From contig CANPWE010000003.1 of the NCBI GenBank assembly GCA_947581895.1, forward strand, positions 3,005 to 67,004: DNA of 64,000 nt, written 5' to 3'. Shown here piece after piece: positions 1,385 through 23,860 of this stretch. The notes below the pieces were generated by a model, which ran no database searches, was not told the DNA's origin, and worked only from the letters and a program-made list of their open reading frames with translations. Both the position numbers and the translations under genes were made by a program. The stretch's first letter is position 1. Every line of letters starts with the position of its first letter. This DNA comes from an uncultured Clostridia bacterium (GTDB lineage Bacteria > Bacillota > Clostridia > TANB77 > CAG-508).

Positions 1385-2758
1385 CTACTTTGAAAAATCA
1401 ACTCCAAAAATCTCCTTGCCCATTAAATATTTCTCCACATTTTGATTTTCAGAACTTTCAAACTCCGTATCAACATCAACATAATATTGCATTGTAATAG
1501 TAATATCAGAATGACCAAGTATCTTTTTCAAAACTGCAGGTGCAATTTTAGCTTCAGCACACCTTGTAGCGAAAGTCCCTCTAAGCATATGAGTATGAAC
1601 ATCAGTCTTTCTAACGAATTTTCCCTTTGAATTAATTTCCTCATATATACCAATCCCAAGTTTTAAAGCAATCCTCTTTAGATTGCTATTTATAGAATTT
1701 TCAATATGCATTGTTCTATCTTCTTTACAAAATAACAAATGATTTTTATTTTCAATCTTATGCTCTAAAGCCGACTCAATAATCTGCTTACTAATATTAG
1801 TCATACTTAAAGTTCTCTCTCCATTTTCAGTTTTAGCAGTTTCTCCAATTATTGCCTTACCTTTAATATTCTTCGTTTGAGTTTTCCTTACATAAATTTT
1901 CTCATTTTCTAAATCAATATCTTTCCCATAATCTAAAACTAAAGCCTCGCCAATTCTCATACCTGTACTTAGTAATAATAAAATCAAATATTTATTAGGA
2001 CATTCCTCATAGCTAACCGAATTTAAATAATCAACTAACTTCTTCTGTTCCTCAATAGTTAAAGCCTTCCTATGATGTCCCTTATACTCACTCTTGGGCT
2101 TTTCAACACGTTTCCAACCAGTCATAAAATTATCTGTTATTATATTCTCATATGTTGCTTGTCCATACCCCATACATATTAATTCATACACTTGCTTTAT
2201 TGTACTTTTAGAATACATTTTCAAGCCTTCCAAATACTTAATTACATCTTCTCTTTTAACTTTCACTATTGGCATATTTGCAAATTTTTCCTTTTGCAAT
2301 TTTTTTAATGTATCAGTCTTTCTCTTATAAGTAGCCTGTTTTATCTTACCTAAGTTATAATCCTCATCTAAAACACTTTCAACCAAATCAACTATAGTTT
2401 TATTGCTTTTAGTAATAATTTTAATGCCACCATTCTGATCCATTTTCAACTTTTCAGTTAATGCCTTATTAAAAGCCTCACTTTCATCTTTACCAACAAA
2501 AGTTTTTGTTCGTACCTTTCCAGTTGTTGTATCTCTTCCAACAGTGAGTATAGCTTTTGGTGTTACTATAAAATAGAAATTCTCACATTCTACATTATTC
2601 TCAAAAACCTTACCATTCTCAAACTTGCTAATATTCCTATATTTGCAAGTATCTTTGTATTTGCAATTACTGCAAATTTCCTTACTAGATAATTTGGTAC
2701 TTTTATCTTTTATTCTCTTCAAAAGATAAGTACCAGATGTTATTCCTTTAATTTTCAA
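1385..2758 (-). CDS. int: tyrosine-type site-specific integrase
   Basis: C-terminal catalytic region HTHMLRGTFATR...LGHSDITITMQYY (R..H..R...Y pattern of phage integrases). Lies adjacent to the att repeat. Confidence 0.8.
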   Translation of the reverse strand: MKIKGITSGTYLLKRIKDKSTKLSSKEICSNCKYKDTCKYRNISKFENGKVFENNVECENFYFIVTPKAILTVGRDTTTGKVRTKTFVGKDESEAFNKALTEKLKMDQNGGIKIITKSNKTIVDLVESVLDEDYNLGKIKQATYKRKTDTLKKLQKEKFANMPIVKVKREDVIKYLEGLKMYSKSTIKQVYELICMGYGQATYENIITDNFMTGWKRVEKPKSEYKGHHRKALTIEEQKKLVDYLNSVSYEECPNKYLILLLLSTGMRIGEALVLDYGKDIDLENEKIYVRKTQTKNIKGKAIIGETAKTENGERTLSMTNISKQIIESALEHKIENKNHLLFCKEDRTMHIENSINSNLKRIALKLGIGIYEEINSKGKFVRKTDVHTHMLRGTFATRCAEAKIAPAVLKKILGHSDITITMQYYVDVDTEFESSENQNVEKYLMGKEIFGVDFSK

Positions 2759-2924
2759 TGTACTTCCGTCCTTTCATAAAATTTCGGAAATACCTTGCAT
2801 ATTTTGCTTTTATGGTGTTATAATAATGTTATAAACATTTATGCAAGGAATTTCCTTGTAGCTCGAAATTTAAATGTTTTCTGAAGGTTTAAATAGTCGC
2901 ATATTTAAATCTTCATTTTTTTCT

Positions 2925-3149
2925 TTAGTAATTAACATTTTCGTTACTTTTAAAATACTCCTTAAATGATTCTTCCATAACAAGCCAAGACTTACCAATT
3001 TTTTTAGCAGGAAAATCCTTTTGGTGAAATAGTGCCAAGCAAGTTTGATTTCCTATCTTTAGTGCCTTTCTAATATCTTTTGTTTCCAAAAATGTTATGC
3101 CATTTAATGTTTTCATAACTGCATTCCTCCTTCTTTTGAATTTTGACAA
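2925..3149 (-). CDS. xis: excisionase-like HTH DNA-binding protein
   Basis: 74 aa with a helix-turn-helix (...GNQTCLALFHQKDFPAKKIGKSWLV...), directly upstream of int in the same orientation. Confidence 0.55.
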   Translation of the reverse strand: MSKFKRRRNAVMKTLNGITFLETKDIRKALKIGNQTCLALFHQKDFPAKKIGKSWLVMEESFKEYFKSNENVNY

Positions 3150-3351
3150 ATATTAATTTATCAATGTTTTTCCCTGTTTTAAAATATTTTATATTTCTAT
3201 TGACTAATTATAGGATTAGCCTTATAATATCAGTGAGAAATATTTAAATACTTTTCAAGTTCACATTCATTATACAATGGTCTTTATATAATGTCAACAA
3301 ATTTTGAAAAGTTTTTTATTTTTTCTAACAAGAAATTTTTAAGGTGAGATT

Positions 3352-4473
3352 ATGAATGTTTTTAATAATAAAAAGAAAGAAAGTATATCTGTTATCCTAG
3401 ACGCATTTCAAGATGCAGAAACTATTGACACATCTTTATACTTACATAAATCAAAGATTGTTTTGCCTAAGGGTAATAAATTTTTACATATACAAGAAAT
3501 AAATTTAAATCAAGATATAAAAGAAGATAAATTTGAACGTGCAGTACTTACAAGGCACTACGGTACATATCTTATAACTTTTTTAAATGCTGATTTTTCA
3601 AATGCAGAGAATGCATATAATACCTTTTTTATTTACTATGGAATTGAAGGTTTTGAAACACCAAGTGTTATGAAAGAGGAATTTCCAAAAGAATATGCAT
3701 CAAGATACAGTTCAACAAAAAAGTTTTTAGCTTACTACAATATGGTTTTTGATTTTTACAAAGAAGATTATCAAGACTTTCAAAGTAGTATAAGAAAAAC
3801 TGTAGATTTTGTATTCAACCTTCACGGAAGTAATAGCTGTTTAGATTTAGATAGATACTCAAAATTCGCTGCATATTCAGCTTCTATTGATTTAATAGGT
3901 CAATTTGATGGAGATATAAAACTTGGACTTGTAAACAATATAAACTCAAAATATGATGCAAATTTTACCAAATTAACTCTAAAGCAAACTGAACAACTTG
4001 CTTATGACATATCTGATAAGAAAATAGATGTTGGAATACATTCTATATATGAAACTACATCCCATTTTGCACTGGCTTATCTTGCATTAAGTGATTTAAT
4101 ACAAAAGTCAAAGAAGAACATCAATATATGCCAAAATTGTGGAAGATATTACGTGCAAAGTTCAGGTAAAGAAGTTTATTGTGATTTATTTAATTTAGAT
4201 GGTACACCATCTTGTAAAGTATATGCTTCTCGTAAAGCCTATGATATTAAAGTATCAGAAGACGAAGCTGAACTTGCGTATAAAAGAGATTATCAAAGAA
4301 GAATAACACAAGTTTATCGTGCTACTGGAGATGAAAAACAGGAATTGAAAAAAAATTATTTATTTTGGAAATCGCGTGCAAGAGAACAATTGAAATTATA
4401 TAGACATGGAAAAATTACTAAAGAGGAATTTTGTAAATGGATAGAAGAAAATAAAGAACTGAAAGGTGATTAA
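3352..4473 (+). CDS. hypothetical protein with C-terminal Cys4 zinc-ribbon
   Basis: 373 aa. CQNCGRYY...C...C cluster near residue 260. GAGAT RBS before the ATG. 8-nt overlap with the next gene suggests an operon. Confidence 0.6.
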   Translation: MNVFNNKKKESISVILDAFQDAETIDTSLYLHKSKIVLPKGNKFLHIQEINLNQDIKEDKFERAVLTRHYGTYLITFLNADFSNAENAYNTFFIYYGIEGFETPSVMKEEFPKEYASRYSSTKKFLAYYNMVFDFYKEDYQDFQSSIRKTVDFVFNLHGSNSCLDLDRYSKFAAYSASIDLIGQFDGDIKLGLVNNINSKYDANFTKLTLKQTEQLAYDISDKKIDVGIHSIYETTSHFALAYLALSDLIQKSKKNINICQNCGRYYVQSSGKEVYCDLFNLDGTPSCKVYASRKAYDIKVSEDEAELAYKRDYQRRITQVYRATGDEKQELKKNYLFWKSRAREQLKLYRHGKITKEEFCKWIEENKELKGD

Positions 4474-8927: not shown

Positions 8928-10148
8928 CTACCACATATCTAATTCTTCTTCCTCATCAATCGTAATTTCATGTTCAATTTGTTCCTCAACCCTAAAGTTC
9001 ATATTTGTTTCCTTTTGAAAATCTCTAATTAGCTGTTCTTCAGATGATACCGAAAATTTACTACATATCCAAGTAATAAACTTAGATACTGTTACTTTGA
9101 ATCTATCAATTATTTTATGTAGTTTTACATTTTCATTATCCAAATCATCTATTATATCATTAAATTTCTTCTTAGTTTTCCTTATTTCCTTATCATACTC
9201 ATTTTTCAATTTTTCTGTTCTAGTTTCAAATTCTTTTTCTAAATCCCTGCATCTTGTTTTAAGTTCTTGATTTTCTTTTAATATTTCATTTTTCTCTTTT
9301 TGATACTTTTCTGCTATATCAACTACTTTGGCTTGCTTTGAAAGTTCTTTGTGTAATACTAAATTGTTTTGATAAAGCTCCTCTATTAAATCGTCTTTTG
9401 GTTTTATTATTTGTTCTTTTATTTTTTCATCTCTATTTATCATAATCTTTTTAAATTCCTTAATATTAGGAACTTCTGGCAATTCTTGTTTTATACTTTC
9501 TAGAACTTTCTTTGTATTCTCAAAATTTGTAATAGCTTTATATTTTTGAATTGGTATATGCTCATTTTGTGTTTCTTCTGATAGCAAACCTCGCTCGAGG
9601 TCAAAGCCTTTTGATTTTACATATCCCCAAAAAGCATTTTGCAAATTTCTATAACTATCTCTACCTTTCCAAAATTCTCTACAACATATTTTATCTATAT
9701 TATTTCCTTCTTTATCTTTTGTGTGGATTACTGGAATATATACTAAATGCATGTGTGGAACACCTTCATCTAAGTGTACTACTGCTGATATTATATTTCT
9801 TTCACCTAGATTATTGTAATCACATACAAACTTGTAGCTTTCTTCAAAATACCTCTTTGTTTCTTTTTCTCCAATTTTATTAAAAAATTTCTCATCTGAT
9901 GTTATTACAATTTCACATACAATAATGCTGTTACTTCTTATTTGACCTTTTAAGTCGTATTTTTCTTTTAGCCTATCAAATTCTTTTACATAGGTTAACT
10001 CATTTTTCTTTATATAAAAATTCATATATGATTTGCTTACATCTATATCTTTGTTAGTATGATTTTTTGCTCGTCTATCATTATGCATACATCTGCCTTT
10101 TGCTTCTGCCCTAGTTAATTTCTCGTTTCTTATAATTGCATAACTCAT
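8928..10148 (-). CDS. mobV: MobV-family (Mob/Pre) relaxase
   Basis: N-terminal AIIRNEKLTRAEAKG...HNDR and the motif VVHLDEGVPHMHLVYIPV (HxDE..PHxH), characteristic of pMV158-type relaxases. Confidence 0.8.
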   Translation of the reverse strand: MSYAIIRNEKLTRAEAKGRCMHNDRRAKNHTNKDIDVSKSYMNFYIKKNELTYVKEFDRLKEKYDLKGQIRSNSIIVCEIVITSDEKFFNKIGEKETKRYFEESYKFVCDYNNLGERNIISAVVHLDEGVPHMHLVYIPVIHTKDKEGNNIDKICCREFWKGRDSYRNLQNAFWGYVKSKGFDLERGLLSEETQNEHIPIQKYKAITNFENTKKVLESIKQELPEVPNIKEFKKIMINRDEKIKEQIIKPKDDLIEELYQNNLVLHKELSKQAKVVDIAEKYQKEKNEILKENQELKTRCRDLEKEFETRTEKLKNEYDKEIRKTKKKFNDIIDDLDNENVKLHKIIDRFKVTVSKFITWICSKFSVSSEEQLIRDFQKETNMNFRVEEQIEHEITIDEEEELDMW

Positions 10149-10354: not shown

Positions 10355-11302
10355 TCAATTTGCTACGGCTTGTTCATACGAGAAATTTGCATAGAATTTA
10401 TCCCAATAATCACTTGGATAATTTCTTTGCACTCCATTCGTGTTTGAACAAGGGCTTTTCTTCTCTACGGCAATATGTGTATTCCCTAAATTATTATATA
10501 AGCAAATCATCAAATAATTTTTCATATTTTGCACATTACTTGTGCTTTTAGCTATGTTAAGTAACTGTACTAAATTTTCTTTAGTTATTAATTTTAATTT
10601 TTCTATTATTTTGTTGTTATTTATAATTACATTCCCAACTCTTAAATTTTCTTTATAAAATAATCCTTCAATAACATCATCTAATATAATTTTCTCATTT
10701 TCACAAAACTCTTCTAGTCTGCAATTACTTTTTATTTTATCAAGCTCTATCTCATCACTATTAGGATTGATAGACTCAGTCTTGATATTATTAGTATTGA
10801 TTATATTTGGATTGATTCCTCGTAAATTTTCCGATTCAAGAGTCGTATTTTCTCCGTCTCTAGAATCGTAAATTTTACGACTCTGGAATCGTACTTTTTC
10901 CGTTTCTTGAATTTCTTTTGATTTTATATTTTCCTCATTAGTTACAATTTCCTCATGTTCTATTTTTCCTACATATATTAAATTTGGCTTACCTAAACCT
11001 TGTCTCTTCTCTACAACAAGATTGACTTCTGCTAATTGCTTAAATGCTTTTGTAACTGTTTTATCAGATAAATTTAATTTGTTACAAACTTCATCTCTAG
11101 TAAATATTAAATATATGTTTCCTTCTTTATCTATCCAATGATTCTTTTGTGATAGTGTTAATCTGTCTAGTAAAAATGAATATAGTATTTTACTATCAGA
11201 ATTTAATTTATCTTTATATTTCGGATTTATAAATAATTCCTGTGGTATTTGATAATAAGAATGTTCAAAACATTCATTATATTTATATGGTGTAAATTCC
11301 AT
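10355..11302 (-). CDS. RepA_N-family replication initiator (copy B)
   Basis: YYQIPQELF...KDKLNSDSKILYSFLLDRLTLSQKNHWIDKEGNIYLIFTRDE...RQGLGKPNLIYVG matches the RepA_N consensus. ggagaac RBS. Confidence 0.8.
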   Translation of the reverse strand: MEFTPYKYNECFEHSYYQIPQELFINPKYKDKLNSDSKILYSFLLDRLTLSQKNHWIDKEGNIYLIFTRDEVCNKLNLSDKTVTKAFKQLAEVNLVVEKRQGLGKPNLIYVGKIEHEEIVTNEENIKSKEIQETEKVRFQSRKIYDSRDGENTTLESENLRGINPNIINTNNIKTESINPNSDEIELDKIKSNCRLEEFCENEKIILDDVIEGLFYKENLRVGNVIINNNKIIEKLKLITKENLVQLLNIAKSTSNVQNMKNYLMICLYNNLGNTHIAVEKKSPCSNTNGVQRNYPSDYWDKFYANFSYEQAVAN

Positions 11303-11384
11303 AAATAAGTTCTCCTTTCTTGTTATTCGAAGAACTTTGAAATTGTTGATATACCTGATATTTTTGGTTCAGTAAATTTCCGTC

Positions 11385-11460
11385 TTTTGAGCATTGTTGA
11401 AAACTTTTTTCTTCAACAAAATTTTTTGTTGAAATGCTTTGTTGAAGAAATTGAACGTAT
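11385..11460. repeat. iteron-like repeats (ttgttgaa family) upstream of repA_N copy B
   Basis: cattgttgaaaac, ttttttgttgaaatgc, ctttgttgaagaaatt and the inverted ttcttcaacaaaa. The same ttgttgaa motif occurs twice at 1205..1235, at the other end of the element. Confidence 0.5.
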
Positions 11461-11584
11461 TTTTCAGAATTTTACTGAACGCAAAAAAATTATGCTATTT
11501 CTCATTTATATTGAAAAATAGCATAATTCATAACTTTTGAATTTTCTCAAATTCTCTTTAATTCCCTCAAAAAAGGGCTAAATA

Positions 11585-11661
11585 TGGTCGAGGCGACAGG
11601 GATCGAACCTGCGACCTCATGGTCCCAAACCACGCGCGCTACCAACTGCGCTACGCCTCGA
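11585..11661 (-). tRNA. tRNA-Pro (anticodon UGG)
   Basis: The reverse complement folds as a cloverleaf: acceptor TCGAGGC/GCCTCGA, D-arm GCGCAGTTGGTAGCGC, anticodon loop TTTGGGA, T-arm GCAGGTTCGATCCCTGT, encoded CCA. A TTGAAA-17-TATATT promoter lies at 11663-11720 on the minus strand. Confidence 0.85.
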
Positions 11662-11755
11662 TTTCTTTATTTTTTCAAATACTAATATAATATAACATAA
11701 TGCCACACATTTTTCAAGAGTTTTTTAAAAATTTTTAAAAAAAATCATTTACCTC

Positions 11756-11784
11756 TTGAAATACTCTAAAAAAAAAGTTATAAT
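11756..11784 (+). promoter_or_regulatory. sigma-70-like promoter (TTGAAA-17 nt-TATAAT) reading into the tRNA-Arg region
   Basis: ttgaaa at 11756-11761 and tataat at 11779-11784, with a 17-nt spacer. Confidence 0.6.
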
Positions 11785-11797
11785 ACTATATAGTTCT

Positions 11798-11836
11798 GCA
11801 ACTGTAGCTTAGCTGGATAGAGCGTTCGGCTACGAA
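11798..11836 (+). pseudogene. 5' half of a disrupted tRNA-Arg-like gene (acceptor, D-arm and anticodon loop only)
   Basis: gcaactgtagcttagctggatagagcgttcggctacgaa matches the intact tRNA-Arg at 11931 through the anticodon loop, then diverges (gcgtaacttcag...). No foldable 3' half follows. Confidence 0.6.
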
Positions 11837-11930
11837 GCGTAACTTCAGTTTTGTGCAAACCTGTATATATCAAAGAACCTAGGAGATTTTATATAAAATA
11901 TTTCCCCTAAATTCCCCTTAATTTATACAT

Positions 11931-12007
11931 GCAGCAGTAGCTTAGCTGGATAGAGCACTCGGCTACGAACCGAGAGGTCGGGGATTCGAATTCCTCCTGC
12001 TGCACCA
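11931..12007 (+). tRNA. tRNA-Arg (anticodon ACG)
   Basis: Acceptor GCAGCAG/CTGCTGC, D-arm AGCTTAGCTGGATAGAGC, anticodon stem CTCGG/CCGAG with loop CTACGAA (ACG), T-loop TTCGAAT, encoded CCA. A hairpin plus T8 terminator follows at 12010-12040. Confidence 0.85.
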
Positions 12008-12009
12008 TA

Positions 12010-12040
12010 CTCTCAAGCTAATTTGAGAGTTTTTTTTATA
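12010..12040 (+). terminator. rho-independent terminator after tRNA-Arg
   Basis: ctctcaagctaatttgagag followed by tttttttt. Confidence 0.7.
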
Positions 12041-12158
12041 CATATATTATTTTCCCCTTATTTTATAATTTTTCCCCTGAAATATAAAAAATAATTCAAC
12101 TAACTTTTTATATGAGTTCTAATGTCGAACTTTTGAATCTGTCTAAACATCCAGTCAA

Positions 12159-14156
12159 TTATTCTTCTATTTCCTCTTGCATCATCATTTTATAATGATT
12201 AAGATGTCCTAACTCTTCAAATATTTTTCGGAATATTCTAAATGCATTTTGATTTAGATTAACATCAGGAGCCATATATAATCCATCCCATAATATTTCA
12301 TATGAATTTTTTATTGGATTGTTATTTTTATAATCTTCTATTTTGGAAACACCATTAATTTTTTGTACTGTTAAAAATTTGAATTTTTCTTTTGTCTTAT
12401 TTTTTCCTTCTTTTCCATAAAGAAAAGAAACTTCTTTAAAAAAATAAATATTATGACTAAATATAAAAATTTGATTTATATTTCTTTTTTCATCTATACA
12501 TAAGTCAATTAAATTTCTAATTAATGTACTAATAATAAATAATACATTACTATCCATACTTGTAACGGGATCATCAATTACTAATATATGTTCTTCTTGG
12601 AGTCCTTTTCTCGTCCTACTTCCAAATACTAAATTGTAGAAATATAAAAATGAAATGAAGCTAAATTCTCCTTCACTTAATGTCTTTGTTGCATCTTCTC
12701 CATTTGGTCTAATAATTGAATAAGTTAGATTGTCTTCATTTTCTTTTAATTTGAAATTGTTAAAATTAAATTTTTTGAGTAAATCATTTATTTGATTAAT
12801 AGTCCTCGTTATGCCACTAATAGAATTTTCTAACTTTTCTAATTCTATTGACTTATCTTTTAAATATATACTTAAATTGTTCAACTCTGTTTCTATGTTT
12901 TGTATTGCATCTGTTCGCTTTTTTAGTTCTGCATTATATTGTTTAATATCATCATTACTTATTGTTCTTATGAAAATCCATGCTTTCTTTTTTAATTCTC
13001 CTTTGCTTTCTTCAATATTTTTAATTTTCAAATTATTAGATTCTATTTTTCTATTATAGATATCCAGTATTTCGTTGATTTTTTCTAATAATATTAGATT
13101 TTTATTAATTTTGCATATATATTTAGGATTATCTATTTTCTTATTAATTTCTTTCTTTATAGAATCTACATATTCATTTATATCAATAATAAGCTGAGGG
13201 TCATTAAAAATTTTATTATTTTCTTTAAGTAATATGTTAATTTGGTTGCATATACTTTCAAAGTTTATTTTCACTGCATCAAGATCATTTTTTTGTTCCT
13301 TATATTTTTCGTCATATAACAAATTTATATTGAATAGGAAATCTTTTTGCAAATCTCTTTGACAAAATGGACATTTATTATTTGACTTTTCCAAATATCT
13401 TATTCCTTCTTCAACCCATTTGCTATTATTTAAATCTTCTATAAGCTGTGATAGTGTAATATCTTTATTTTCAATAATTGCTGTTTCTAAAATATTAGAT
13501 TCGATAATTTCCTTAAATTGATTTATATCTATTTTTTCTATTAATTCTTGTTCTTTTAACTCATTTTCGTATAAAGTTTTATATTCTTCTAATAAATCGT
13601 CGTATAAAATTTTATCATTTGTTTCTTCTATACATAAACATTTGTTAAAAAAATTTTCTTTCTTGCCCATATTTCCTCTATAAATTTCAGAAATTTTATC
13701 ACAATAATCTTTTTTATATTTGTTCCAAAATAAATCTTCAATACTTTCTTTATATTTTTTTATATCATCTTTCATTTGTTTTAATTGTTCTTTTTTTATT
13801 TTCTTAGTATCTAAAATATCTTTTCTTTCGATATTAAGCTTTTCAATCTCTTTATAAATCTCTTCAGACTCTTCACCTAATGTATAAATACCTCTTAACT
13901 TAGTTTCAGGATTAAAATTACTTTTTACAAAGTCTTGATTATATACTAATCTACTACACTCAATATTGTTATCCCATAGCAACTGTGAATCCTCATATTT
14001 ACTTGGATTTTCAATAACTCTAGTAATTGTAGTTTTACCTGCTCCATTATTTCCATAAATGAAGTTTATTTTAGATGGTTTTATTGTCGTTTCTGTATTT
14101 TTATCATATGTAGCTATATTTTTTAGTATAATATTATTTATCATTTTTTCCTCCAA
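12159..14156 (-). CDS. AAA_13/SMC-like ABC ATPase with central coiled coil and CxxC zinc hook (defense-island type)
   Basis: Walker A FIYGNNGAGKTT near the N-terminus. Long K/E-rich coiled coil containing CPFCQR. C-terminal signature/Walker B LSEGEFSFISFLYF...ILVIDDPVTSMD and H-loop FIFSHN. Confidence 0.7.
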   Translation of the reverse strand: MEEKMINNIILKNIATYDKNTETTIKPSKINFIYGNNGAGKTTITRVIENPSKYEDSQLLWDNNIECSRLVYNQDFVKSNFNPETKLRGIYTLGEESEEIYKEIEKLNIERKDILDTKKIKKEQLKQMKDDIKKYKESIEDLFWNKYKKDYCDKISEIYRGNMGKKENFFNKCLCIEETNDKILYDDLLEEYKTLYENELKEQELIEKIDINQFKEIIESNILETAIIENKDITLSQLIEDLNNSKWVEEGIRYLEKSNNKCPFCQRDLQKDFLFNINLLYDEKYKEQKNDLDAVKINFESICNQINILLKENNKIFNDPQLIIDINEYVDSIKKEINKKIDNPKYICKINKNLILLEKINEILDIYNRKIESNNLKIKNIEESKGELKKKAWIFIRTISNDDIKQYNAELKKRTDAIQNIETELNNLSIYLKDKSIELEKLENSISGITRTINQINDLLKKFNFNNFKLKENEDNLTYSIIRPNGEDATKTLSEGEFSFISFLYFYNLVFGSRTRKGLQEEHILVIDDPVTSMDSNVLFIISTLIRNLIDLCIDEKRNINQIFIFSHNIYFFKEVSFLYGKEGKNKTKEKFKFLTVQKINGVSKIEDYKNNNPIKNSYEILWDGLYMAPDVNLNQNAFRIFRKIFEELGHLNHYKMMMQEEIEE

Positions 14157-14212
14157 TTATTTGTTTATTTTATACTATTTTTGTAAATTCTTTATATTAT
14201 AACTATCATATT

Positions 14213-15031
14213 CTATGTCAATTTTTCTTTTATTATATGTATTAAATCTTCATATTTTATATTCTTTGAGTATGAATGCTTATTAGCATAATTTTTCCAA
14301 AGACCTTTTAGGAAATCACTTTCTTCTATTTCTTTCAATTTCTGTTTTGTAATATTTAAATCTGTATTTCTATTTAAAAATGTTTTTTCGATTGCTTCTT
14401 TCAAAATATTACTGCTATAGGAGTTATTTACTAAAAGATAATATAAATCATAGTAATCTTTCATTCTGCTATTTAATATTCCTTTTTCAATAACAGTTTG
14501 ATATTTTTCAGCAATTATACTTTCTATAGGATACGTCATAAGTTGTAATGTTCTATCTTCAAAAAGCATTTTATAGTTGTATTCTATTTCTTTAGGAGTA
14601 ATAACATCTCCAGTTGCTATATCAATACTTAAATTTACTTTTAATCCATCTAAAATAGCAATAAGATTGTATTTTAATCCGCCATATGTATCCTCTTCTC
14701 TTATTGGTTTAAAATTTTTTATATTGAAAGTTACATTGTCTTGTATATCAATTGATAATATTTCTGTTAATACTGTATATAATTCCTCATCTGTTAAATT
14801 AATTCCTTTTATGCATGCATCCATATCCATAGTAGTTCTAGAGTCGATTCCCATAATTGATGACAACAATAAGCCGCCTTTTAAAATAAAATTATTTTTA
14901 TATTTAGATATACTTAATCTTTCTAGAATTCTTTCGAACATATAATTTTGCAAAACTTCATTAACTGTAATATTGCTTCTATTAGCAATGTTTTTTGCCT
15001 TGTCCATTAAACTTTTAGAATTTTTTATCAT
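14213..15031 (-). CDS. abiEii: AbiEii/AbiGii-family nucleotidyltransferase toxin
   Basis: N-terminal ...ERILERLSISKYKNNFILKGGLLLSSIMGIDSRTTMDMD, typical of DUF1814/AbiEii. 4-nt overlap with the upstream AbiEi-like gene. Confidence 0.75.
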   Translation of the reverse strand: MIKNSKSLMDKAKNIANRSNITVNEVLQNYMFERILERLSISKYKNNFILKGGLLLSSIMGIDSRTTMDMDACIKGINLTDEELYTVLTEILSIDIQDNVTFNIKNFKPIREEDTYGGLKYNLIAILDGLKVNLSIDIATGDVITPKEIEYNYKMLFEDRTLQLMTYPIESIIAEKYQTVIEKGILNSRMKDYYDLYYLLVNNSYSSNILKEAIEKTFLNRNTDLNITKQKLKEIEESDFLKGLWKNYANKHSYSKNIKYEDLIHIIKEKLT

Positions 15032-15612
15032 ATTATAGCCTCCATATAATTTTTTACATTATCATATACTTTCAGCTTTTTTGCATATTGAAACATATTA
15101 TTTACATTGAAATCCTTATCTTTAATACATTTTCTTATAATTTTATTAGCTAGTTCAATCTCCATTGAGTTTCTGTTTGAAATGATGTCTACTAGAGTTT
15201 TTTCAATATTATATGAATATACTTCTTTACCTGTATTTGTTAAAATTTTTATTTTTCCTATATTTATCATTTCTTTATTAACTCTATGAATATTGGCGAT
15301 ATTTTTACAATATCCTAAACTATTATTTCTTGTAGTAGTAATATCAATTTTTTCTGGTGTTCTTTCTGTTTTATTAAGAAGATATAATGCTGTATTAAAA
15401 GAAAAAACTGTATTAGGATGTTTGATTTGAAAAATAAATAATTCATCATATATAAACTTATTTGTAGCATATATTCCATAATCTATTCTTTCAATTGCTT
15501 TATCTTTCACCATTTTAGATAGAATTGTTCTAGAAATTCCTTTTTTATTTGCATCCTTTGAAGTTATAATACTTCCATTAGCATTTATTATTTCAATATA
15601 TTTGTCATACAT
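15028..15612 (-). CDS. abiEi: AbiEi-family antitoxin/transcriptional regulator
   Basis: 194 aa, the expected size and position (upstream, overlapping) for the AbiEi partner. HTH-like N-terminus. ggggga RBS. Confidence 0.65.
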   Translation of the reverse strand: MYDKYIEIINANGSIITSKDANKKGISRTILSKMVKDKAIERIDYGIYATNKFIYDELFIFQIKHPNTVFSFNTALYLLNKTERTPEKIDITTTRNNSLGYCKNIANIHRVNKEMINIGKIKILTNTGKEVYSYNIEKTLVDIISNRNSMEIELANKIIRKCIKDKDFNVNNMFQYAKKLKVYDNVKNYMEAII

Positions 15613-15903
15613 AACTCTTCCCCCATTACACTTTTAACACATTTTATCATTTTGTGTTAAAAGTGTAAACATGTTTTGCAAAATTTCTCTTTTTTATTAT
15701 TGAAAATATTAAATTTTTTATACACCAATTTAAATCTTTATTATATTTTATTAAACTGTTTGATATCAATATATTAGCAAATTTTTATTTATAAATCAAT
15801 AATAAAATCTTTTAAAAAATATAAGAAATAAATATAGATTAGTCTATATTTATTTCTACAAAAAATTAAGCCTATTCCCTATAAAGAGAATAGACTATAA
15901 AAT

Positions 15904-16978
15904 TTACGATGCTTTCTTTAATGTATAAGTAACATCAAAGTTTTTATCAAAAAAATCTTTATAACTTTTAACATACTTCGTATCTATATTATAACCTAAA
16001 GGTAGTAAATCCCTTATTATACGCCTTATAATATAGTCAAGATTCTGATTAGATTGTGGTAATCTAATTACAAATATAATATTCTTAATCGGTTTTTCCT
16101 CTATTTCTTTTAGTATCATATATGAATTAGATATGTTTTGAAAAGCTATAACTGGTACATTAATTGTCTCTTTCATCAAATTAGCGACTAAAAAATTATC
16201 TGTAATATACACAGTATCTGTATTTTCATTGATACCATGTCTCATAATCCAACTTTTAGCAGGTGTTCCATTTATCTTATTATTACTTGAAAACCATAAA
16301 TCACTTGTATTGTTAAAAGGTTTACTTAGATGAACTGATAGACCTTGAATATAGCCATTTTTATCAAATACTGGTACAAAGAATCCATCATAACTATTTA
16401 AGCACCACTTAAAATCTTCCTCTTGATAAAATCCAGGTATTCCGTGCAAGATTACATTTTTTAGCCATAGCATAACCTATCAACCTTCTCTTAATATAGT
16501 TTTTAGGTGCTGTTCTATATAAACCATCTTCTATTGAGCTTTCAAGAAATCCTATACTTTCTAAATATTTTTTATGTTGTTGTTCTAACTTTAGCATTCC
16601 TAAAAATTCTCTATATACTCTATCTCTAATTTCAACATCAACAAGTTCATTTACTGGTGATATTACAAACTTTTCTCTATCCATAGAATAACATTGTCTT
16701 TCTAAAAGTTCCTTAAAAGCTGCTTTATTGTCAATATGTCTAACTTTTGCATATAAGCCAATAGAATAACCACCATTTCCACAACTTGTACAACAATATT
16801 TATTTGTACGAGAGTTTAAGCTTAGTGTTGGTATTTTACTTAATTTCTGATAGCCACAAAACGGACATATTGCTTTACTTTCATAACCTCTTTCTTCTCT
16901 TATATCTAAACATAAATGATATGCAACATTTAATATGTTTAAATGTTTTTCAGTTTCCTGATAATCTAGTTTATACAT
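15904..16978 (-). pseudogene. DNA primase (CHC2 zinc finger + Toprim-like C-terminus) interrupted by a frameshift at an A6 run (~16455-16460)
   Basis: ORF 16409..16978 carries CPFCGYQ...CCTSCGNGGYSIGLY (CHC2 primase zinc finger). ORF 15904..16473 continues in the +1 frame across ggctaaaaaatg. The two halves overlap by 65 nt. Confidence 0.6.
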
Positions 16979-22060: not shown

Positions 22061-23860
22061 TTATGCTGCTTGTAGCTCAGCATCCTTATTTAATTCAGTT
22101 TTTATAACTGTAAATTTACCACTATTACCATCTGCAATTTTTAATGAATCTCCTTTTGATACTTGTGCAATAATTAATTGTGTATCTTTCGCATAATCCT
22201 CTATAAAGTCATAATCTGCACAACTTTCATAGTCGTCTATAAATATTGGAAAATTCACTTTACTTATTTTGTTAAACATATTTGCAAATTCTAATGCAGT
22301 TGCAATAGTTTCAGACCTCGATAAGTCTGATAGTGGATGTCCTTTGTATTCAATTACAAAATCCTCCTTGATTTCTCCAGTTGTTTTTAGAACTGAATAG
22401 AACTTAACATCAACATCCTTTAAGTACTCTTTTGCAAGTTTCATTTTTTCTTCAATATAAGCAATATAGAGCTTTTGTGCTACTTTTTTAGCTTTGTATA
22501 AATTGTCAATTATATTCCTTTGTGCTATTTTTTCCTTTTTAAATTTTAGTATATCGTTTCTGGCATTTTCCATTTGCATTATTTGCATATCAATTTGGCC
22601 ATTAAACTTTTCAATCTCCAACTTTTCATTCTCTAATCGCCTAATATCATCTTGAACAACTGTAATTCTTTTTGATTTTTCTATTGTTGCACTTCCTTCT
22701 AATGAGTGAAATTTACATCTCTCCATTGTAAATTTAAATTTCAAATCCTTAATAGTCGCTTCAAGCAAATTTCTTCTATCAAAGAAACCCTCTAATTCCG
22801 TTTTCATGTTTTTTACTGTTTTCATTTTGCTTTCATCAGCTATTGTTTGCTCACATGTAGGACATTTTGAACAAGCTCCATTTTTTATTGATAAATACAC
22901 CTGTTTTCCTTTTTTCATTTTTGTATCTAATTCATTAAATTCATTTTCCTTAACAAGAATATCTTTTTCAAGTCTTTCAACTACTTCCTTTTGTTTCTCC
23001 TTATCTACTATGTCTTGATTTGTAGTTAAAAACGATAGTTCTTGCCTTGCAAGAGTGAGCTCTTCCTCTTTTTCAAATGTTTTCTTTTGAGGTAATTCAT
23101 CTGTTATAAATTTATCTGCATATCCAATCTTTCCATCTAATGTAGAAATTAATGTTTCTGCCCTTTTTATCTCTCCATTCAAGTCATTTACATATGTTGG
23201 TACATCATTTGGCATTCCTTCTAAAATGTTTTGTTCATCTCTACTTAAATTGTTATATGCTATATCCATACATATATTAAACATATTGAAATTTACAAAT
23301 CTTGTTTGTTCTTCTTCAGTTAATTCATTAAAGATTTTGTCCTGTTCCTTATAATATTTTTCAAGAAGTAAATTCTGTTCATTTGTACTTAATCTATCAA
23401 AAATTTCTTTTGGCTTTATGTCTGATAAATACTTATCCACCAGTTCCTTTTGGTCTGCTGGCTTCTTGCTTAAGAAGTATAATGGATTGATTATTGATAA
23501 AAATAATTTTTTATCTTTATAAAAGCTAGTTAATTCAGCTTGTGTTACTGGCTTACCATCTAACAATAATACATTTCCTTTATTATCAAATCTGTTTTTA
23601 CTTCTGATTATTGTATGCTGCATTCCAGTATTATCTGTAAATCTCATTTCACCATAAGATGTATCGCAATTTTTATTTATTAAACATTGTTTTTCATCTC
23701 CACTTAAATTAGTTCCTAGCAAAATATTTATAATTGCATATAAAATATTACTTTTACCAGACCTATTTTTTCCAGTTATTTTTGTAATGTCATATAAATC
23801 TGTCTCAAATATTTCTTTGTGACTTCTAAATCCTTTTGTTTTAATATAATCTATCTTCAT
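22061..23860 (-). CDS. SbcC/Rad50-like AAA ATPase with zinc hook
   Basis: N-terminal Walker A GKNRSGKSNILYAI in the RecF/SMC_N context. Coiled coil with CSKCPTCEQ. C-terminal Walker B FPIFIDDYESCAD. Confidence 0.65.
   Translation of the reverse strand: MKIDYIKTKGFRSHKEIFETDLYDITKITGKNRSGKSNILYAIINILLGTNLSGDEKQCLINKNCDTSYGEMRFTDNTGMQHTIIRSKNRFDNKGNVLLLDGKPVTQAELTSFYKDKKLFLSIINPLYFLSKKPADQKELVDKYLSDIKPKEIFDRLSTNEQNLLLEKYYKEQDKIFNELTEEEQTRFVNFNMFNICMDIAYNNLSRDEQNILEGMPNDVPTYVNDLNGEIKRAETLISTLDGKIGYADKFITDELPQKKTFEKEEELTLARQELSFLTTNQDIVDKEKQKEVVERLEKDILVKENEFNELDTKMKKGKQVYLSIKNGACSKCPTCEQTIADESKMKTVKNMKTELEGFFDRRNLLEATIKDLKFKFTMERCKFHSLEGSATIEKSKRITVVQDDIRRLENEKLEIEKFNGQIDMQIMQMENARNDILKFKKEKIAQRNIIDNLYKAKKVAQKLYIAYIEEKMKLAKEYLKDVDVKFYSVLKTTGEIKEDFVIEYKGHPLSDLSRSETIATALEFANMFNKISKVNFPIFIDDYESCADYDFIEDYAKDTQLIIAQVSKGDSLKIADGNSGKFTVIKTELNKDAELQAA

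Follow-up and report, generated by a model that had tools for sequence, protein, structure and literature searches.

RloC proteins (COG4694) join a split ABC ATPase head, into which a coiled coil of ~400 amino acids with a CxxC zinc hook is inserted, to a C-terminal nuclease. The RloC nuclease is defined by the triad Arg-X3-Glu-X36-52-His, in which a Ser often precedes the His, and substitution of Ala at any one triad position abolishes both the activity and the toxicity of the Geobacillus RloC (PMC2610378); the domain has been assigned a HEPN-type fold (PMC3710099). A single gene encodes RloC; it lies in variable islands of defence genes, and restriction genes are often close by. PrrC, the E. 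coli tRNA-Lys anticodon nuclease that the type Ic restriction system EcoprrI keeps silent, likewise couples an ABC ATPase to a C-terminal Arg-Glu-His nuclease, but is only ~400 amino acids long, has no coiled-coil or zinc-hook insert and is always within an hsd locus. In Rad50 and SbcC, too, an antiparallel coiled coil that bears a CxxC zinc hook at its apex interrupts the ABC head, but Rad50 lacks a C-terminal RNase domain. AbiE is a self-contained two-gene system, in which the gene (abiEi) for an antitoxin with an N-terminal winged-helix domain and a C-terminal domain directly precedes that of a nucleotidyltransferase toxin (abiEii).

We analysed a stretch of 64,000 nucleotides (the window) from an uncultured Clostridia bacterium, in which a preliminary description had reported a zinc-hook ABC ATPase of 665 amino acids, with no obvious fused effector, beside a canonical AbiE pair. 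All three open reading frames are present on the minus strand in the layout described (Table 1). The mechanically called ATPase reading frame does extend for 665 codons, from an upstream TTG at 14156, but the true start, judged from the conserved GGAGG ribosome-binding site and the N-termini of all homologs, is the ATG at 14144, which yields a protein of 661 amino acids; motif residues are quoted in the 665-residue numbering. The two upstream genes match AbiE profiles over their full length and show no notable difference from described AbiE pairs. AbiEii matches Pfam PF08843 (E = 3.2e-38, positions 1-225 of 238) and the PADLOC AbiEii profile (E = 5.2e-97, positions 7-270 of 294), with a visible GG...DMD nucleotidyltransferase motif; AbiEi matches the PADLOC AbiEi profile (E = 7.2e-54, positions 8-194 of 198) and scores 24.4 bits against Pfam AbiEi_4, slightly below the 25-bit cutoff. 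The antitoxin gene comes first and shares 4 nt (ATGA) with the toxin gene. The pair looks complete from its sequence, and it is an intact, independent type IV toxin-antitoxin and abortive-infection module; the adjacent RloC-type gene lies outside the AbiE system as described.

Table 1. Coordinates of the features of the three-gene block and its surroundings in the window
Feature	Position	Strand	Basis or remark
tRNA-Arg(ACG)	11931..12007	+	3' end 151 bp beyond the ATPase stop codon
rloC-family gene (PADLOC PDC-S06, Pfam AAA_13) with in-frame deletion of the anticodon-nuclease core	12159..14144	-	661 aa from ATG
C-terminal remainder of the former nuclease domain: last two helices and conserved HY-MMM end	12162..12278	-	Homolog alignment; AF2 helix map
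Deletion junction, single remaining copy of GGATGGATT	12280..12288	-	Comparison with L005
H-loop/switch histidine, FSHN	12450..12461	-	Residues 566-569; invariant in both homolog alignments
Walker B, ILVIDD, followed by D-loop	12570..12587	-	Residues 524-529; invariant in both homolog alignments
ABC signature, LSEGE	12666..12680	-	Residues 493-497; invariant in both homolog alignments
Zinc-hook motif, CPFC, apex of coiled-coil insert	13362..13373	-	Residues 262-265; C-P-F-C-Q invariant in both homolog alignments
Walker A/P-loop, GNNGAGKTT	14028..14054	-	Residues 35-43; conserved in both homolog alignments
Promoter-like site, just before the ATPase gene	14221-14194		Consensus match only
AbiEii nucleotidyltransferase toxin, full length	14213..15031	-	272 aa; Pfam PF08843, PADLOC AbiEii
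AbiEi antitoxin/transcriptional regulator	15028..15612	-	194 aa; PADLOC AbiEi
Promoter-like site	15669-15641		Consensus match only
Promoter-like site	15769-15740		Consensus match only
Terminator-like hairpin, upstream of abiEi, between the three-gene block and primase-like genes	15869..15896	-	Consensus match only

By its profile matches, the ATPase is a member of the RloC family and not a new effector-less sensor. It matches Pfam AAA_13 with E = 2.3e-115, as the preliminary description had proposed, and the PADLOC profile PDC-S06 with E = 3.7e-180, but only over positions 1-627 of 732; proteins called PDC-S06 by PADLOC are those called RloC by DefenseFinder (supplement of PMC11811056). Several homologs are annotated by JGI as ‘wobble nucleotide-excising tRNase’. 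The weaker match to the PADLOC PrrC profile (E = 1.1e-8) stops at position 285 of 372, while a full-length relative, P0002, covers positions 1-726 of PDC-S06 and 104-351 of PrrC. The N-terminal 620 residues have the RloC arrangement of split head, ~400-residue coiled-coil insert and CxxC hook, and the head motifs and the CPFC zinc hook are all intact; in the AF2 model of P0002 the hook is flanked by long helices at 94-155 and 279-440. The best Foldseek matches of the model are Rad50 complexes, SMC heads and LmuB. When P0002 was searched by sequence against solved structures, no match was found, and a profile search gave only weak coiled-coil or Rad50-hook matches, among them the Rad50 zinc-hook structures 6zff and 1l8d over the hook region (E ~2e-3), and nothing for the nuclease domain.

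Other assignments fit less well. A Lamassu-, Septu- or Gabija-type ATPase was rejected on its weak profile matches (LmuB E = 9e-18, PtuA E = 9e-4, against 3.7e-180 for PDC-S06) and because no LmuA/LmuC or PtuB partner gene is adjacent. A Rad50/SbcC repair protein was rejected as well: the coiled coil of the window ATPase is much shorter, no Mre11/SbcD gene lies among its neighbours in the window, its family carries an RNase domain, and matches to NCBIfam ABC families, Rad50 and RecF included, are negligible. Unlike PrrC, the window protein contains a coiled-coil and hook insert; no hsd gene was found among its neighbours in the window, and the triad is missing.

The close homologs are nearly all 728-729 amino acids long and carry the triad as Arg-x3-Glu-x41-Ser-His; the nearest full-length relatives thus resemble RloC in the nuclease as well, although the Geobacillus RloC, with its triad at R692/E696/H737, is longer than the ancestral window form of ~728 residues. 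The motif R-x3-E-x36-52-SH is present in 115 of the 120 homologs, relatives at the same locus included, and across 14 homologs of 32-61% identity the residues R637, E641, S682 and H683 (P0002 numbering) do not vary. The window allele is the sole protein with intact ends among the 120 to lack the triad; the other short entries are fragments that miss one terminus. When aligned with its relatives, the window protein has a single clean gap of 67 residues between YEILWD and GLYMAPD, which corresponds to ancestral residues 621-687 and includes all four invariant positions. At the DNA level the gap is 201 bp (67 codons), in frame, and removes the whole triad. In the nearest relative, L005, the 9-bp sequence GGATGGATT occurs twice, exactly 201 bp apart, at both boundaries of the triad-coding segment, as expected for a slippage deletion. 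Both L005 and L006, which share the tRNA-Arg junction with the window, keep the 201 bp; the L005 copy has the triad but may be frameshifted. Four independent metagenome assemblies besides the window contain the deleted allele itself, with 99-100% DNA identity, and neither the missing 201 bp nor its peptide was found elsewhere in the window as an invertible or relocated segment.

The AF2 models show a C-terminal domain made up of helices only, in which the triad residues lie; the deletion takes about 54% of this domain, three helices wholly and a fourth in part. The H-loop histidine is followed by 97 residues (the preliminary description had put the figure at ~100), and the residual tail includes no catalytic residue, in agreement with the earlier statement that the window protein has no obvious effector domain. 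The assignment of this domain as a nuclease follows from the published motif and from family naming; homology to PrrC at the profile level is weak, with one of 23 isolated nuclease domains matching the PADLOC PrrC profile (E = 6e-4), and among solved structures no match to the domain was found. Since single Ala substitutions in the triad already abolish RloC activity (PMC2610378), the window copy, which lacks the triad and more than half of the domain, is almost certainly nuclease-dead, and the activity that defines RloC is predicted to be absent.

We therefore consider it very probable that the locus holds an rloC gene that lost its nuclease core through a 201-bp in-frame deletion between 9-bp direct repeats and lies beside an independent AbiE pair. 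The ancestor would have been a Rad50-like ABC ATPase with a coiled-coil and zinc-hook insert and a fused C-terminal anticodon nuclease. By analogy with the Geobacillus RloC, DNA ends would activate the intact protein by way of the ATPase and the zinc hook, and it would then excise the wobble nucleotide of tRNA, halting translation under phage attack. Slippage between the repeats would have removed the triad segment while keeping the frame. Binding of ATP and of DNA ends, as well as dimerisation through the hook, may persist in the resulting protein, but it would be unable to cut tRNA. The window protein is thus most likely a defused, non-functional remnant of a single-gene abortive-infection system, and a gene for a self-toxic nuclease can be expected to lose that activity, above all when a conjugative element carries it. 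The occurrence of a single such allele among the 120 homologs, without diversity, suggests a recent accident rather than a maintained function; because all copies are nearly identical, there has been no decay time that could reveal whether selection maintains the allele. Of the roles considered in the preliminary description, neither that of a standalone sensor nor that of a partner to an effector from another locus is supported: the protein's own nuclease domain is deleted here and kept in L005, L006 and most of the family. An RloC with a degenerate nuclease, which that description had itself named as speaking against its reading, is what we found.

The tRNA-Arg gene likely marks the integration-site side of a conjugative element. 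Its junction is common to loci L001-L006, and a copy of its 5' half lies at 11797-11839. Genes for conjugation extend to about 36.7 kb (a primase zinc ribbon, ArdC, PcfJ, PcfK, SSB, a T4SS pilin and a TraG-type ATPase), with housekeeping genes beyond. The earlier placement of the block at the edge of an element is thus plausible, but no att-type repeat of the tRNA-Arg 3' end was found by which the boundaries could be fixed. A search for near-identical DNA with positions 11500-16000 against annotated plasmids and phages matched only the tRNA.

A different reading joins the ATPase, as a functional sensor without a nuclease, to AbiEi and AbiEii in one three-gene defence system, with AbiEii as the effector. 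We consider this improbable; linkage to AbiE is restricted to close relatives of at least 73% identity and is rare elsewhere. The order AbiEi-AbiEii-ATPase is kept in all relatives of at least 73% identity for which upstream sequence is available (L005, L006, L007 and L101), and in a consensus scan we saw no terminator-like site between abiEii and the ATPase gene. Moreover, two AbiE versions, mutually only 30% identical, lie upstream of close relatives: in the group at 73-75% identity, AbiEii is only 30% identical to that of the window, and DNA homology to the window starts exactly at the ribosome-binding site of the ATPase gene. Thus, the adjacency of AbiE and the ATPase survived a module swap. 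AbiEii also lies directly upstream of a Bacteroidales homolog at 28% identity (L086).

However, the AbiE-linked relatives L006, L007 and L101 encode full-length proteins of 728-729 residues with the nuclease triad, which argues that AbiEii is not required, as the ATPase comes with an effector of its own. No AbiE was found near homologs at 70%, 57-58% or 48% identity (a 181-residue protein upstream of the 70% homolog was ruled out as an AbiEi remnant). AbiE is rare around distant homologs: in 72 loci only 3 of the 135 immediate neighbours are AbiEii, and restriction-type genes dominate the 129 different families found alongside; these counts come from a Pfam census, as a home-made AbiEii HMM was too narrow for distant AbiEii proteins. 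AbiE, moreover, is described in the literature as self-contained with its two genes. A literature search for a functional link between RloC and AbiE returned only surveys of defence systems and unrelated papers. The three-gene arrangement raised earlier is therefore not supported as an obligate system: AbiE and the rloC gene are cargo neighbours, at the end of a conjugative element that is proximal to tRNA-Arg, and not parts of one machine.

RloC has been proposed to work as a hook-linked dimer or oligomer (PMC3458546), and the deleted allele, which keeps hook and head and misses the nuclease alone, might act as a dominant-negative decoy that pairs through them with the intact RloC of a recipient and blunts its defence during transfer; a conjugative element with an ArdC-like anti-restriction gene close by would suit such a role. 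This reading is pure inference. The 201 bp is retained in related elements at this site, and the occurrence of one allele without diversity suggests that no function is maintained; we regard the decoy as highly improbable. With the frame kept and the other motifs intact, some residual or new role for the deleted allele is conceivable, but its re-use as a Rad50-like DNA-end sensor, whether coupled to AbiE or acting as a hook-mediated decoy against recipient RloC in conjugation, is on the whole unlikely. Re-use would agree with two observations: the adjacency of AbiE and RloC outlasts the AbiE swap and recurs in the distant Bacteroidales locus, and there is in nature a distant subclade of RloC-like proteins in which the canonical catalytic histidine is absent and a small partner gene is conserved.

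Short repeats such as those that flank the deletion sometimes confuse assemblers, but assembly k-mers are far longer than 9 bp and the same allele is present in four other, independent assemblies, so that an artefact is effectively refuted, as is a naturally short, effector-less family, since every other complete homolog among the 120 has the segment.

Both systems at this locus, RloC and AbiE, are already known, and the RloC copy is decayed: what appeared to be a new effector-less zinc-hook ATPase is corrected to the known RloC anticodon nuclease, whose active site has been deleted. The usual defence-finder tools would go on calling the deleted copy a defence gene, so that profile-based calls can count dead copies; the sole warning signs here are that profile coverage ends at 627 of 732 and that the protein is shorter than its relatives by about 67 residues. 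Were the deleted allele functional, roles beyond the nuclease would be implied for the ATPase and hook module of RloC; our analysis gives no support for this. The locus also provides a clean natural case in which a repeat-mediated deletion has defused a self-toxic gene of abortive infection, and it did so in the part of the protein where laboratory point mutations abolish the toxicity of RloC.

ORF calling placed the ATPase, AbiEii and AbiEi genes on the minus strand, in agreement with the preliminary description, and every ATPase motif described there was located. In the numbering of the 665-aa ORF, these are Walker A GNNGAGKTT (residues 35-43), CPFC (262-265), the signature LSEGE (493-497), Walker B ILVIDD (524-529) and the H-loop FSHN (566-569), with 97 residues beyond the switch histidine. 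The TTG that opens this ORF overlaps a conserved GGAGG ribosome-binding site, and the next ATG (14144) is the start in all homologs; thus, the ATPase is 661 aa. Pfam assigns it to AAA_13 (E = 2.3e-115) and the middle ORF to AbiEii (E = 3.2e-38), while PADLOC detects full-length AbiEi (7.2e-54) and full-length AbiEii (5.2e-97), bearing out the AbiE pair beside the ATPase.

By descent, the ATPase gene belongs to the RloC family of anti-phage anticodon nucleases, based on the profile coverage of a full-length relative, the names given to the family, and Rad50-type structural and hook matches. The window ATPase matches PDC-S06, the PADLOC profile of a candidate system with one gene, with E = 3.7e-180 over positions 1-627 of 732 only, and its weak match to the related anticodon nuclease PrrC ends early, at position 285 of 372; the full-length relative P0002 covers PDC-S06 positions 1-726 of 732 and extends the PrrC match to 351 of 372. 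A database search returned 166 homologs, of which the close ones are nearly all 728-729 aa, and several bear the JGI name ‘wobble nucleotide-excising tRNase’, that is, RloC. The same Bacillus proteins are called ‘RloC’ in DefenseFinder and ‘PDC-S06’ in PADLOC (PMC11811056 supplement). The best structural matches of the whole-protein model are Rad50 (7zr1), SMC heads, Lamassu LmuB and retron/Septu PtuA, and the family profile has a weak but specific match in the CPFC region to the Rad50 zinc-hook crystal structures 6zff and 1l8d (E ~2e-3). Indeed, the window ATPase has every architectural feature of RloC except the one that defines its activity, the nuclease motif.

The founding RloC paper gives this motif as Arg-X3-Glu-X36-52-His, often with Ser just before the His, with counterparts in PrrC (R320/E324/H356) and Geobacillus kaustophilus RloC (R692/E696/H737); Ala at any single motif residue eliminates anticodon-nuclease activity and toxicity (PMC2610378). 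The homologs we found have the form R-RIL-E, 41 residues, S-H, and R-x3-E-x36-52-SH is present in the C-terminal region of 115 of 120; the window allele is the sole motif-less protein with both termini, the remaining exceptions being truncated fragments. R637, E641, S682 and H683 (P0002 numbering) are invariant in 14 homologs at 32-61% identity, and all lie inside the deleted residues, 621-687. The AlphaFold model of P0002 (mean pLDDT 79) runs from an ABC lobe through long helices around the CPFC loop to another ABC lobe and, at ~614-722, a domain made up of helices only; when modelled alone, this domain folds into six helices in a compact bundle (pLDDT 81, pTM 0.78). Judged from this model, the deletion takes three helices whole, part of a fourth and the Ser-His loop (67 of 124 modelled residues). 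A HEPN assignment of the RloC nuclease domain has been published (PMC3710099); we found no similar domain among solved structures, and only 1 of 23 isolated nuclease domains reached the PrrC profile, consistent with the first description of RloC as a distant PrrC homologue. The C-terminal ~130 aa of the window ATPase, where a check for a cryptic nuclease had been proposed, contain none: this region is the end of the ABC lobe and two stumps flanking the deleted nuclease domain. What we find is the outcome named beforehand as refuting a new system, an RloC with a degenerate nuclease, its catalytic core deleted.

Alignment with full-length relatives (35-87% identity) reveals one clean internal gap in the window protein, between ...YEILWD and GLYMAPD..., and the conserved blocks N-x-MRRILEQYF and NDGSHS fall inside it. 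Relative to L005, the nearest locus that keeps the segment, whose protein is 84% identical, the window lacks exactly 201 bp (67 codons), in frame. L005 has the 9-mer GGATGGATT at each deletion boundary (positions 3867 and 4068, a spacing of exactly 201 bp), and a single copy is left in the window, at 12280-12288; this pattern is the hallmark of deletion by slippage or microhomology. A search throughout the window for the deleted DNA and peptide found no copy elsewhere. An artefact is ruled out: four independent metagenome contigs (L001-L004) encode the identical shortened protein, and their DNA is 99-100% identical to that of the window as far as the tRNA-Arg junction and across it. Both L005 and another locus, L006, share the downstream junction with the window at ~80% identity and keep the 201 bp; therefore, the ancestral gene at the locus was full length. 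On its one contig, the L005 ATPase gene is broken in two, an A-run right after Walker A being 1 bp short. As a possible second independent inactivation at the locus, this hints that the gene is inactivation-prone at this site, but it could equally be a homopolymer assembly error.

In every relative of at least 73% identity with available upstream sequence (L005, L006, L007 and L101), AbiE is the next module upstream and points the same way as the ATPase gene. In the 73-75% group, AbiEii is only 30% identical to that of the window, and DNA homology to the window spans exactly the ATPase ribosome-binding site to the ATPase stop codon; thus, the ATPase gene is a module of its own, and its place beside AbiE outlived an exchange of the AbiE module. 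A functional link between the ATPase and AbiE, for which this retained adjacency and an AbiEii upstream of a Bacteroidales homolog (L086, 28% identity) speak, is possible but unlikely, since the proteins of the AbiE-linked L006, L007 and L101 are full length and include a nuclease themselves, and the L005 copy, though maybe frameshifted, has the triad. Moreover, other homologs have other neighbours: GmrSD and a ResIII/Eco57I enzyme (70% identity), a split integrase and a 2'-5' RNA-ligase-like gene (57-58%), or GmrSD, an HNH protein and a methyltransferase (48%). Among the 135 immediate neighbours at 72 distinct loci, Pfam annotation counted 129 different families, most commonly DUF2130 (7), ResIII (6), WYL (4), Methylase_S (3), GmrSD_N (3) and AbiEii (only 3), matching the variable, restriction-rich defence islands published for RloC (PMC2610378, PMC3458546). 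In our reading, AbiE is cargo that often adjoins the gene within one mobile-element lineage, and is not a system component.

Small mobilizable elements carry the 73-75%-identical AbiE-RloC modules: L100 and L101 have RepA_N and TnpV, and L007 and L100 have a relaxase and MobC. Their replication-initiator type is that of the window elements left of the tRNAs. A widespread 57%-identical full-length homolog, present on 224 contigs (among the loci, L013-L018), consistently lies between a split tyrosine integrase on its upstream side and a 2'-5' RNA-ligase-like gene of LigT type on its downstream side; such an RNA-repair-type enzyme adjoining a tRNA nuclease may merit attention. A distant RloC-like subclade (26-30% identity; L075, L078, L083, L088, L090, L091, L098), found mostly in gut Firmicutes/Lachnospiraceae and also in Atopobacter, still has the Arg-x3-Glu block (RRILEYYF) but NDG[L/M/I] in place of the NDGSH of other homologs, and thus lacks the canonical catalytic histidine. 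Six members, and L089, have a conserved co-directional upstream gene (~210-235 aa, no Pfam match); subclade and gene may be an undescribed two-gene variant.

Features of the window and of homolog-bearing loci
Feature	Position	Strand	Remark
Integrase	1385-2758		mobilizable element by tRNA-Pro
Mob_Pre	8928-10148		mobilizable element by tRNA-Pro
RepA_N	10355-11302		
Direct repeat, ~1.1 kb	90-1151; 10456-11596		75-83% identity
tRNA-Arg 5' half, 43-nt copy	11797-11839		88% identical to 11930-11972
ATPase ORF	12159..14156	-	665 aa from TTG; ORF call
AbiEii ORF	14213..15031	-	272 aa; ORF call
AbiEi ORF	15028..15612	-	194 aa; ORF call
Overlapping ORFs	15904-16473; 16409-16978	-	189 aa each
SMC_N/AAA_29-type ATPase	22061-23860	-	599 aa
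Split ATPase gene	L005:2012-2209; 2176-4197		
AbiE-RloC modules and their elements	L007:4586-8176; L100:4866-8588; L101:5864-7160		
57%-identical homolog locus (example)	L013:10709-11254		
RloC-like ORF, subclade	L091:7905-10208		
Subclade partner gene	L091:6991-7653		
Subclade partner gene	L083:7296-7943		
Subclade partner gene	L098:7052-7729		
Partner gene	L089:5762-6388		

The three-gene block is 151 bp from tRNA-Arg and forms one end of a conjugation gene run (primase zinc ribbon, ArdC-like, PcfJ, PcfK, SSB, T4SS pilin, TraG-type ATPase, recombination-directionality-factor-like protein, tyrosine recombinase) that reaches ~36.7 kb, past which are housekeeping genes, including an HtrA-like protease, DnaB_2-/DnaC-like proteins and GyrA. 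The placement at an element edge is thus plausible, though unproven, as a search for att-type repeats of the tRNA-Arg 3' end found none. By consensus matches only, there are promoter-like sites and a terminator-like hairpin ahead of abiEi, and the abiEii-ATPase gap has a promoter-like site and no terminator. The overlapping ORFs adjoining the AbiE block, laid out identically in L001, look like a primase in two frames, by frameshift or as two real overlapping genes; the upstream one has a DnaG-type CHC2 zinc ribbon. The second SMC_N/AAA_29-type ATPase, inside the conjugative element, has weak, sub-cutoff Pfam matches and no relation to the RloC/AbiE finding. The partial tRNA-Arg copy, 133 nt upstream of the intact gene, may be a scar of former integration or excision. 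The region left of the tRNAs has mobilizable elements of the RepA_N/Mob_Pre/integrase kind; the second copy of the direct repeat spans RepA_N and its flanks, and therefore related elements appear in tandem beside tRNA-Pro.

In intact RloC, the zinc hook keeps the enzyme silent and the DNA-dependent ATPase activates it, upon which RloC removes the tRNA wobble nucleotide and translation stops (PMC2610378, PMC3458546). The rloC-derived gene of the window retains an intact head and hook, and its catalytic core is absent; its product would be incapable of tRNA cleavage, a defused remnant. A role for this nuclease-less allele, whether retained or new, is in our view very improbable. Both systems at this locus, RloC and AbiE, are already known, and one of the two has decayed.
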